Source: an uncultured Solirubrobacteraceae bacterium (GTDB lineage: Bacteria > Actinomycetota > Thermoleophilia > Solirubrobacterales > Solirubrobacteraceae). Taken from it: 64,000 bases of DNA. Each line of letters starts with the position of its first letter. Within the stretch, counting starts at the first letter, position 1. Where the stretch lies: positions 11,536-75,535 of the forward strand of contig CAVTXW010000009.1 in the NCBI GenBank assembly GCA_963738815.1, given 5' to 3'. Positions 19,811 to 53,506 of the stretch are shown here, piece after piece. Below the pieces are notes generated by a model. The model searched no databases and had not been told where the DNA came from. It saw only the letters and a program-made list of their open reading frames with translations. The position numbers and the translations under genes were made by a program.

Positions 19811-23336
<3,526 letters not shown>

Positions 23337-33335: not shown

Positions 33336-33372
33336 CGAGGGAAGGCCGGCCGGCGCTCCATGCCGGCCCCGG

Positions 33373-50116: not shown

Positions 50117-51778
50117 GCGCTCGCCAGGTACTCGTGGATCAGCGACACCGCCATCGAGCCCTCGCCGACCGCGCTCGCGACGCGCTTGATCGAGCGCGAG
50201 CGCACATCGCCCGCGACGAAGACGCCCGGGACGCTCGTCTCCAGCAGCGTAGGGGTCGCGCTCGAGCGGCCAGCCGTGCGCGCGCACCTCGGCGCCCGCG
50301 AGGATGAAGCCGCGCTCGTCGCGCGCGAGCACGCCCTCCAGCCAGTCGGTGCGCGGCGCCGCGCCGATGAAGATGAAGCAGGCGTCGGCCCGCTCGGTCG
50401 CGACCTCGCCGTCGGGGCCGCGGATGTCGAGGCTCGCCAGGCGCCCGTCCTCGCCGTGCGCGGCGACGGCCTCGGTGCCGGTGCGCACCTCGACGTTCTC
50501 GAGCCCCGCGATCTGCTCGATCAGGTAGTGGGACATCGACTTCTCGAGCGAACTGCGCACGAGCATCGAGACGCGGCTCGCGTAGCCGCTGAAGTAGACA
50601 GCCGCCTGGCCGGCGGAGTTCGCGCCGCCGATCACGACCACGTGCTGGTCCGCGCACGAGCGCGCCTCGGTCAGCGCCGCGCCGTAGTAGACGCCGGCGC
50701 CGGTGAGCTCGGAGAAGCCGGGCGCAGGCATCATCCGGTAGGAGACGCCCGAGGCGATCAGCACGCAGTTCGCGCTCAGCTCGGCGCCGCCGCGTCAGCT
50801 CGACGATCCGCCCGGCGCCCTCGATCCGCAGCGCGGCGGCGTCGTTGATCGTCAGCAGCTCCGCCCCGAGCCGGCGCGCCTGGTCGGTCGCGCGGCGCGC
50901 GAGGTCCGAGCCCGACAGGCCGGCCGGGAAGCCGAGGTAGTTCTCGATCCGGCTCGACTGGCCGGCCTGCCCGCCGGGCGCCTCGCGCTCGACCATCACC
51001 GTGCGAAGCCCCTCCGAGGCGCCGTAGACCGCCGCCGCGAGGCCGGCCGGGCCGCCGCCCACGATCACGAGGTCGTAGTGCTCGGCCGCCGGCTGCCCGG
51101 CGACGCCGATCTTCTCGGCCAGCTCGAGGACCGTCGGCTGCTCGAGCACGGTGCCGTCCTCGAGCAGCACGACCGGCAGGCGCTCCTCGTCCACGCCCGC
51201 GACCGCGATCAGCTCGCGCGCCTCGGCGTCGCGCTCGACGTCCAGCCAGCGGCCGGGGACGCGGTTGCGGGCGAGGAAGTCGCGCAGCTCGTGCGTGGCG
51301 GCCGAGAAGCGGTGGCCGATCACCCGCACGCCGCCCGCTTCGAGCGCCGCCCCGGCCTCCCAGGTGGTGAGCAGGTCCTCGACCACCGGGTAGAGCTGCT
51401 CCTCGGGCGGGTCCCAGGGCTTCAGCAGGTAGTAGTCGAGCGCGACCTCGTTGATCGCCTGGATCGCCGCGTCGGTGTCGGCGTAGGCGGTCAGCAGCAC
51501 GCGCTTGGCTTCGGGGAAGATCGCCCGCGCCTTGACCAGGTAGTCGGTGCCGTCCATCCCCGGCATGCGCTGGTCGGCGACGAGCATCGCGACCCGGTCG
51601 CCGCGCGTGTGCATCTGCGCCGAGGCAGCTCCAGCGCCTCGGCGCCCGAGCCCGCGCGCATGATCCGGTAGTTCTCGCCGAAGCCGCGCCGCAGGTCGCG
51701 CGCGACGGCCGCGAGCACGGCGGGCTCGTCGTCGACGGCGAGGATCGCCGGGTGCCGCTCGCGCCCGTTCTCGGACAC
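50113..51778 (-). CDS. Receiver / glutaredoxin-like / thioredoxin-reductase-like fusion; frameshifts near 51620, 50795 and 50248
   Basis: REC: AVDDE, ADQRMPGMDG, LLTAY, LLKPW. Reductase: GGGPAGL, SRIENYLGFP, GGANSAGQAA, PGVFVAGDVR. Confidence 0.9.
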
Positions 51779-51780
51779 GC

Positions 51781-52096
51781 TCAGCTCAGCATCGGCGACG
51801 GCGGGATGCGGGTGCTGCCGTGGACCTGCGGCGAGCACCATGCCGACGTCGTCCACGAAGCACCACGACCATTGCTCGCCCGGCTCCAGCGAGCGGATCA
51901 GCGGGTGCTCGGCGGAGCCGGCGTGCCTGCGGGCGTGTTTGTTCGGCGAGTCGTCGCAGCAGCCGACGTGGCCGCACTCGAGGCAGATCCGCAGGTGCAG
52001 CCAGACGCCGCCTTCGCGCAGGCAGTCCTCGCAGCCGGCCACCTCGGCCGGCAGCTCGGTGACGGTGATCGTGTCGAGGTGGCTGCAGGGCGGCAC
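51781..52096 (-). CDS. UBP-type zinc finger (ZnF-UBP/BUZ) protein; frameshift near 51830
   Basis: CSH...CEDC...WLHLRICLECGHVGCCDDSPNKHARRH...WSWCFVDD. Confidence 0.88.
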
Positions 52097-52180
52097 GCCC
52101 CCAGCATGACACGACCGGCGCGGCCTCGCCGGCCGAGCGCTGCCGGCGTCTTCCGTCCGGGCCGCGACTACACTCCCGCG

Positions 52181-52342
52181 GCGGGGATGGAGGTCCCCAC
52201 GGAGCCCACGGATGGGACCGCAAGGAGGGCAGTCTCGGCGCTCGCGCGCACAGGCCGCAAGGCCTATCGGGCGCCGACGCCGAGACGCAAGCCCACGCCG
52301 CGGGCGGCGCGCGGGGCATCCAGCACGGATGCCCGGCGCCGC
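52181..52342 (+). ncRNA. Candidate structured small RNA with multiple ANGGA (CsrA-type) motifs
   Basis: TACACT at 52169-52174; hairpins GGGGAU-GGAG-GUCCCC, CCCA-CGGA-UGGG, AGGCC-GCAA-GGCCU, GUCUCGGCG/CGCCGAGAC; terminal hairpin 52304-52342; no convincing ORF. Confidence 0.55.
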
Positions 52343-52356
52343 CCCGCCTGCGGCCT

Positions 52357-53028
52357 TCAGGGCAGGTGTGCGACGGCGTTCACGCGCGTCGTGCGGCGCG
52401 CGGCGATCGTGAACGCCGTCGCCGGCACGCCGACCTGCGAGCCGCCGGCCCCACGGACGAGGGTGCCCCCGAGCACGTAGCTGCCGGGAGCCAGCGGGAA
52501 GATCGCGAAGTGCCCGTCGCGGACGCGCCGGCTGGCGACGGGGCTGCCGGCCGCCGTGGAGACGGTCACGGTGCCGCCCTGCGGCCTGCGCGTGGCGGCA
52601 GCGCGTACTCGTCTGGAGCGGTCCGCCCTGCAGGTAGAGGGCGACGACGAGCTCGGTCGGGCCCGCGGCTCTGCACGGTGCCGGGGTGATCCGGGCCGGG
52701 CAGCGCAGGCTGGGCGCAGAGCGGCTTCACGAACACCGTCACCGTCCGCGTGTGCCGGCCACCGCCCGGACTCTGACGGGACACGAGCTGGCGCCCGTCG
52801 GGACTGGCGGGAGTCACGTAGGGGCCGTGGGCGGGGAGCTGGTGCACCGTGATCGCCGCAGCCCGATGAGCCGAGGGCCTGGCGGGCGCTCGCCAGGCTG
52901 ACCCCCACGACGTCGGGCGCCACGCACCCTTCGCCGGCCTGCGTGGCGGCGCCCGCAGCGGGAAGCGCGGCGCTCGTGGCGAGGGCCGCTACTGCCAGGG
53001 GAACCGCATTTTTGCGCGGACGTTGCAT
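52357..53028 (-). CDS. Secreted PASTA-like domain protein; several frameshifts
   Basis: Signal peptide; CVAPDVVGVSLASARQAL, LVSRQSPG, C-terminal beta domain FPLAPGSY. Confidence 0.65.
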   Translation of the reverse strand: MQRPRKNAVPLAVAALATSAALPAAGAATQAGEGCVAPDVVGVSLASARQALGSSGCGDHGAPAPRPRPLRDSRQSRRAPARVPSESGRWPAHADGDGVREAALRPACAARPGSPRHRAEPRARPSSSSPSTCRADRSRRVRAAATRRPQGGTVTVSTAAGSPVASRRVRDGHFAIFPLAPGSYVLGGTLVRGAGGSQVGVPATAFTIAARRTTRVNAVAHLP

Positions 53029-53473: not shown

Positions 53474-53506
53474 GAACAGGAGGGTCGGCCGGCGCTCCGT
53501 GCCGGA

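Follow-up and report, generated by a model that had tools for sequence, protein, structure and literature searches.

Two routes of CsrA control have been described: sponge RNAs serve Gammaproteobacteria, the protein FliW is the expected means in other bacteria, among them Actinobacteria, and the two routes are reported to be anti-correlated (PMC4682653, PMC7652899). Specifically, Zere et al. reported a strong anti-correlation between fliW and the BarA-UvrY sRNA route, placed Actinobacteria with the phyla for which FliW is the expected route, and left open whether inhibitory RNAs occur in fliW-bearing species (PMC4682653). Messenger RNA leaders belong to the same picture. The B. subtilis hag leader has a two-site design through which CsrA represses (PMC7652899), and the flaA mRNA leader of C. 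jejuni, a CsrA partner, also titrates the protein (PMC7652899, PMC4894983). Here we describe a locus from an uncultured member of the Solirubrobacteraceae that, judged from its sequence, appears to be a real, previously uncatalogued, single-copy small RNA gene carried by a handful of uncultured actinobacteria from soil, and we compare it with these systems.

The window, i.e. the whole 64,000-nt stretch of DNA analysed (C9:11536-75535), is part of a metagenome-assembled genome of 3.39 Mb with 71% GC and an estimated completeness of 74%. Within it, a spacer of 260 nt (52097-52356) separates two minus-strand ORFs; in a GC3 frame plot, the coding signal is clear on both flanks and there is none in between. 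On one side, the zf-UBP gene (51615..52096, minus strand; GTG start at 52096; PF02148, E 2e-13; frame backed by the GC3 plot) heads a divergent operon encoding, in addition to zf-UBP, a receiver-flavoenzyme, a cNMP-binding protein and a GNAT protein. On the other side, the ORF list places a convergent ORF (52357..53028, minus strand; TGA stop at 52357-52359), the 3′ neighbour, which lies outside the RNA and has no Pfam match. The high-GC3 frame of this convergent ORF switches three times, near 52560, 52650 and 52860, which suggests frameshifts, be they assembly errors or the mark of a pseudogene. The other flank has an irregularity of its own: the zf-UBP ORF reads stop-free (window 51491-51620) into the N-terminal part of the receiver domain and overlaps the next ORF (50139..51614), whose start corresponds to position 41 of the receiver profile. 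The GC3 frame switches near 51580-51610, and in relatives a stop codon separates the two genes. Either the two genes are fused here, or a frameshift or assembly indel has produced the run-through.

Queried with blastn against its own genome, the spacer matched only itself, and against 40 relatives it returned only short GC-rich chance matches. Homologues were collected from the regions upstream of zf-UBP orthologues (two congeners) and by means of a 22-nt pattern and a gapped pattern, run over collections of genomes and metagenomes, and a covariance model, yielding 15 distinct homologous sequences in total, from genomes of the genus and from soil contigs. Four soil sequencing runs contributed only relatives' contigs that cover the zf-UBP gene. 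The covariance model (R1, built from alignment A1) detected a single copy in each of 8 genomes among the 151 sampled from one Solirubrobacteraceae genus and had no match in 146 genomes representing 50 other genera of the family. Loose matches to the gapped pattern in unrelated phyla and gut metagenomes were discarded: they had no 5′ hairpin, lay in coding DNA and were about as numerous as chance would produce for 21 fixed bases. Rfam did not match the spacer even at E values up to 10, nor did it match 11 homologous loci. Over their first 23 nt the homologues are 95.7% identical to each other, compared with 83% for the adjacent zf-UBP coding sequence overall and 72% for its third codon positions. 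On the strength of the homologues, their covariation and the empty Rfam search, the original prediction was right to propose an undescribed, conserved, structured noncoding RNA gene on the plus strand, and the family is genuine, new and of narrow range. The multicopy REP or MITE repeat that the prediction had named as a refuting outcome is not what we found: blastn detects one copy in this genome, and the covariance model one per genome.

The sequence TACACT at 52169-52174 (plus strand) has the conservation of a −10 box. T1, A2 and T6 are invariant in 14 homologues, whose variants are TACACT, TAGACT, TACGAT and TAACAT, and 7-8 variable nucleotides follow. A conserved −10 box, a variable stretch and then an invariant hairpin form the signature of a promoter whose transcript starts at the hairpin; the predicted start is 52182 or 52183. 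Further upstream, the box TCCGTCCGG (52152..52160, plus strand), in the −35 region of the RNA promoter, is kept in 12 of 15 upstream regions, and a genome-wide regulon search for this box together with the −10 recovered only the RNA's own promoter. A consensus scan for U-tract terminators and E. coli-type promoters was empty on either strand, as expected at 71% GC. Between the divergent promoters lies a GC-rich 7-bp hairpin followed by a T-rich run (52127..52153, plus strand). The closest homologues keep the hairpin and TTTT, other homologues have different hairpins in the same place, and there is no plus-strand gene upstream for it to terminate. Elsewhere in the window, TACACT recurs at 22721-22726 (minus strand), 2-3 nt upstream of a match to the ZMP/ZTP riboswitch (22634-22718).

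The 5′ portion of the predicted RNA is where the GGA motifs are found. HP1 (52183..52198, plus strand), the 5′ hairpin GGGGAU-GGAG-GUCCCC, carries site 1 (52187-52191) in its loop and is near-invariant in 14 homologues, with the consensus GGGGA-(U/A)GGA(G/A/U)G-UCCCC and a loop reading A(U/A)GGA(G/A/U); compensatory changes in its stem are seen in the distant member L179. Site 2, a single-stranded A-C-GGA-G (52199..52204, plus strand), is unpaired in every MFE fold and is present as A-N-GGA-G in 14 of 15 homologues, N being C, A or U. The linker that leads to the rod measures 15-30 nt; its sequence turns over, with at least one further (A)GGA always kept. In the window's own subgroup, the linker includes HP2 followed by CAAGGA. 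HP2, CCC-ACGGAU-GGG (52205..52216, plus strand), holds site 3 and is confined to this subgroup (the window's own sequence, L055, L056, L057, L059 and L175), across which its loop reads A(C/A)GGA(U/C); its CACGGAUG matches the SELEX/RsmE consensus. Site 4, CAAGGAGG (52221..52228, plus strand), lies at the foot of the rod. AAGGA is kept here in nine homologues, and those without it have (A)GGA or AGGGA elsewhere in the linker.

The long rod (52228..52294, plus strand), in which GUCUCGGCGC... pairs with ...GCGCCGAGAC, ends in a GCAA tetraloop (52257-52260) and is the only hairpin common to all members of the family. Here, 95% of cells are paired, three pairs show compensatory change and U-A has become U-G in five sequences; the base of the rod is almost invariant, its tip cap is GCAA or GCGA, and the closest relatives have an extra GNRA-capped hairpin inserted in it. 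In L085 and L179, U-rich tails follow. The rod is likely a stabiliser of the transcript and possibly its terminator. Beyond it, a 3′ GC-rich hairpin (52302..52344, plus strand) contains the fifth GGA (52325) and is seen only in the closest subgroup, where its outer stem is conserved and its inner stem differs in L056 and L057 yet still pairs. No U tract follows this hairpin, which could be a further terminator for the RNA or, equally, terminate the convergent gene. The GNRA-capped rod and terminal hairpin of the original prediction are both present, the latter with the restriction to the closest subgroup just given, while the two alternative pairings proposed for a tandem CGCCGA repeat did not survive comparison, the repeat being restricted to 3 of the 15 homologues. 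We likewise rejected a closing helix that would pair CCCGCGGC (52175-52182) with GCCGCGGG (52297-52304): its 5′ half coincides with the variable stretch between −10 box and start, and the pairing is lost in other homologues. The distant member L179:869-990 (genome G104; 46 bits) has a different, longer 5′ hairpin, retains the rod with its U-rich tail and has no zf-UBP neighbour within 868 nt; its form and context suggest that the rod module may predate the other parts of the RNA or be more mobile than they are.

In silico folding of the plus strand (52180-52345) gave −106.6 kcal/mol (z = −5.1), and none of 200 shuffles folded as well. Alignment A2 has 95.4% of its cells paired and changes on both sides in 6 of 22 pairs; none of 500 shuffles and no slid register comes close to these values, although the fitting of A2 to the covariance model flatters them. 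Reading the same pairs on the minus strand lowers the paired fraction from 95.4% to 89.9%, the G-U cells (23) outnumber the A-C cells (5), and the hairpins have GNRA caps only when the plus strand is read. Together with the −10 box, the G-U excess and the GNRA caps place the RNA on the plus strand, divergent from zf-UBP.

These strand signals also speak against the element acting in cis, as a minus-strand leader of zf-UBP or as the terminator of the convergent gene, or being a REP/MITE repeat. Such readings could draw on the position of the rod and the 3′ hairpin directly beyond the stop codon of the convergent ORF and on the minus strand, which folds as well (z −2.7). Yet there is only one copy of the element, its G-U pairs, GNRA loops and −10 box all favour the plus strand, and L026 and L178 carry the element in the absence of the convergent gene, which is replaced there by a co-directional signal-peptide gene. 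Moreover, zf-UBP has a promoter of its own, 6-7 nt from its start, whether the element is present or absent. In the window this is the putative extended −10 TGTCATGCT (52103..52111, minus strand), 6 nt before the start codon, and TGTCAT(G/A)(C/T)T is kept 6-7 nt before the zf-UBP start in all loci, including the RNA-less L028. Given the function we infer for this box, its spacing suggests a leaderless zf-UBP mRNA. In G013, both flanking genes and the zf-UBP promoter are kept and the element is absent, so it is not needed as a zf-UBP leader. Overall, we regard a cis element or repeat as improbable.

Pattern search located ANGGA on the plus strand at 52187, 52199, 52208, 52222 and 52325. The original prediction had listed these five motifs along with TACACT in a gap of ~260 nt, two GGA hairpins and three matches to CANGGANG, and all of this was recovered: the hairpins at 52183-52198 and 52205-52216 of the MFE fold, the matches at 52207, 52221 and 52324. 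ANGGA proved to be rarer than the guessed one per ~400 nt, with a genome-wide count of once per 582 nt per strand. Four of the sites lie inside 40 nt. Clusters of at least four ANGGA within 40 nt number only five in 6.8 Mb (both strands), where a rough Poisson estimate gives ~0.6. Three of the other four clusters are ribosome-binding and start regions of genes and the fourth falls inside a small ORF. The latter cluster (C11:264279-264318; L212:980-1019) follows a TAGACT box where a 66-codon ORF begins, within an island of low GC (0.60-0.68); it is probably coding rather than RNA, and we dropped it as an RNA candidate. In the RNA described here, the role foreseen for the fifth GGA (52325) could not be upheld, this motif being partly in a stem and its hairpin being limited to the closest relatives. 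The check by covariance model, in turn, came out in favour of GGA-loop conservation. No letters of the RNA are better conserved than the GGA motifs, every homologue has at least three of them, they are unpaired or looped in every MFE fold, and only the N of A-N-GGA varies, at three independent sites.

Motifs of this kind could also make the RNA a ribosome-binding-site mimic, or part of a short coding leader of 66 codons beginning with ATG 52212. Indeed, AAGGAGG at 52222 is a perfect ribosome-binding sequence, and the GGAG at 52201 sits 7 nt before that ATG. Variation of the base after GGA, which in HP1 is G, A or U, nevertheless fits A-N-GGA better than an exact GGAGG mimic. As for coding, ATG 52212 is missing in 10 of 15 homologues, and the homologues, 101-155 nt long, differ by lengths that are not multiples of three, with no frame kept. 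The small ORF was consequently rejected, and mimic or coding leader alike would be highly improbable.

A weightier alternative is a base-pairing small RNA that acts without CsrA, using the G-rich 5′ region (UCCCCA-N-GGAG and GGAGG stretches) as a seed for C/U-rich stretches in mRNAs. The 5′ region is contiguously conserved and accessible, the narrow range is typical of lineage-specific base-pairing sRNAs, and the gene lies divergent from a signalling operon, an arrangement common for base-pairing sRNAs. On the other hand, the variable N would interrupt the seed midway at each site, the linker turns over yet keeps its GGA, and predicted duplexes with the 5′ regions of hag, zf-UBP and csrA were no better than those of shuffles (z −0.5, +2.1, −1.2 and +0.6). 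Weighing both sides, we consider base pairing rather unlikely.

The divergent arrangement itself, already part of the original prediction, is strict: all 14 loci with sufficient flanking sequence have 51-95 nt between the 5′ end of the RNA and the start codon of the divergent zf-UBP gene, and the two promoters stand back to back. Such linkage would be compatible with a structured RNA that has another partner or role tied to the zf-UBP operon, either bound by a protein of the module or serving as the module's output or input; so would the large, conserved, GNRA-capped rod, which is more elaborate than a terminator requires. But the linkage may reflect only recent common descent in one subclade, the zf-UBP gene is present in 51 of 61 genomes, most of which lack the RNA, and none of the operon's domains is known to bind RNA. 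A role tied to the operon seems rather unlikely to us. It and base pairing are the main rivals of the reading to which we turn below, that of a CsrA decoy.

Both csrA and fliW, the genes to which the original prediction had directed attention, are present, and csrA exists in two paralogues. One is an orphan (C6:164116-164271; L001) adjoining a DUF2090 gene; the other (C7:384811-384966) follows a flagellin-like gene and fliW in a flagellin-fliW-csrA cluster (L002, C7:384325-384966). The products of the two paralogues share 35% identity, and each can be aligned across the RNA-binding core with CsrA proteins of solved structure. In a region that is presumably important for FliW control, the orphan reads HREATG and the flagellar copy KEENRA, compared with QAENNA in the Geobacillus protein (PDB 5DMB).

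The major flagellin gene (C7:352072-352136, minus strand) has a sigma-28-type promoter (CTCAAGTTTC, ~11 nt, GNCGATAA) and a 65-nt leader with a 5′ 8-bp hairpin, whose pentaloop is AUGGA, and the ribosome-binding site AAGGAG. This layout is kept in 30 genomes of the genus. The AAGGAG ribosome-binding region is invariant, the loop is A-N-GGA in 28 of the 30 with N being any base, and the stems vary and covary. By its architecture, the leader looks like a two-site CsrA target. The small RNA is under the same constraint, with A and GGA fixed and N free, which argues for a protein that reads A-N-GGA over base pairing or an exact ribosome-binding mimic.

Given the orphan csrA, the flagellin-fliW-csrA cluster and a flagellin leader with the same loop, a CsrA decoy would be the best single reading of the RNA, albeit one that we advance tentatively and with somewhat less than even confidence. 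More doubtful still is the wider proposal that this decoy would be the first RNA antagonist of CsrA in Actinomycetota, operating alongside FliW, copying the two-site flagellin leader and maybe serving the orphan CsrA. The RNA itself is predicted to be an independent transcript of ~115 nt (52182/3 to ~52295), or of ~165 nt if it extends through the 3′ hairpin to 52344. Transcription would start at the 5′ hairpin, and the first 50 nt would display three to four A-N-GGA sites—in the HP1 loop, in the single strand, in HP2 (within its subgroup) and at the rod foot—while the GNRA-capped rod would stabilise the transcript and probably end it. The GGA sites would bind one or two CsrA dimers, and the RNA would thereby compete with mRNA targets of CsrA, e.g. 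the flagellin leader, working like RsmX, RsmY and RsmZ without being their kin.

Several conserved GGA motifs, looped or unpaired, and a csrA gene in the same genome are features to be expected of a CsrA-sequestering class of RNA, and the RNA described here shows both. The presence of the RNA, however, tracks neither csrA nor one of its paralogues: csrA is found in 144 of 151 genomes of the genus and the RNA in 8 of 151, and carriers have 1-3 csrA copies, as do non-carriers. With the RNA in ~5% of the genus genomes and csrA near-universal, it is not the general CsrA control of this lineage. Other findings count against a decoy as well. The RNA has only three to four sites, compared with 7-22 in classical CsrA sponges; the strict linkage to zf-UBP points to a local role outside the CsrA reading; and GGAG-type motifs are also ribosome-binding-like, making another partner possible.

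The same genome contains a REP-like hairpin, CCGGC-A(C/U)GGAGC-GCCGG, in 69 copies at 56 loci, two of them in the window (33350-33366 and 53489-53505, both minus strand). These hairpins are mostly single and located just after stop codons; some form tandem arrays of 4-6 (C6:448081-448250 and C7:305516-305618, both minus strand; C10:252370-252477, plus strand). The GGA-bearing strand coincides with the sense strand of the gene upstream in 33 of the intergenic cases, versus 16. With an A(C/U)GGAG loop on 69 REP-like hairpins, the looped motif is not specific to CsrA targets in this genome. As the motif in the loop is of the CsrA type, transcription of the arrays could make them sponge-like. A unique tandem repeat at C10:231798-231971 (L213:999-1172), with 4.8 units of 37 nt between RodA/FtsW-like and EAL-domain genes, has seven ANGGAG on its minus strand. 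The units show kinship to the REP-like hairpins, Rfam has no match to the repeat, and within the genus it is hardly conserved. A stretch of 13 identical nucleotides shared with the C10 tandem array was set aside, since chance would account for it in a genome of this size.

If the decoy reading were true, then, with the REP-like arrays, RNA titration of CsrA would not be a gammaproteobacterial speciality. An actinobacterium that combines the RNA, fliW and an orphan csrA offers a concrete test for RNA decoys outside Proteobacteria. Even if CsrA is not the partner, the locus represents a new structured RNA family of uncultured soil Solirubrobacteraceae, with a defined promoter, boundaries and 15 sequences, enough for a family description.

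Compared with known systems, the RNA resembles 6C RNA and other orphan structured sRNAs of actinobacteria in being lineage-restricted, GC-rich and highly structured, in its conserved loop motifs and in having no canonical U-tract terminator. 6C RNA has C-rich loops and is widespread in Actinobacteria, whereas the RNA described here has G-rich GGA loops, is confined to part of one genus and has no Rfam match.

Like the Rsm/Csr sRNAs, it would stand alone as a small RNA, it presents several GGA motifs, some in hairpin loops and some in single-stranded linkers, it has a GGA-presenting 5′ hairpin, and it comes from a genome with csrA; its size (~115-165 nt) and number of sites (3-5) are within the range of RsmX/Y/Z. 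The CsrB/RsmZ kinship implied by the original prediction, by contrast, has to be given up, as there is no homology in sequence or structure: the families of CsrB, CsrC and RsmX/Y/Z (RF00018, RF00084, RF00166 and RF00195) had no match, be it to the window (gathering score), to the spacer (E values up to 10) or to 11 homologous loci. The RNA further differs from these sRNAs in its phylum, Actinomycetota (Solirubrobacteraceae), in having neither a known GacA/UvrY-type upstream site nor a U-tract terminator, and in that more than half of it is one long GGA-free rod. It also coexists with fliW, which is reported to be anti-correlated with the sRNA route (PMC4682653).

The flagellin leaders, i.e. 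B. subtilis hag and C. jejuni flaA, differ from the RNA in that it encodes no protein, lies far from flagellar genes and is preceded by a −10 box of the sigma-70 type, in contrast to the sigma-28-type flagellin promoter. What it has in common with them is a 5′-terminal hairpin loop with A-N-GGA and, after it, a second GGA in an AAGGAG box: the flagellin leader of the genus has exactly the hag/flaA layout, and the small RNA repeats the same.
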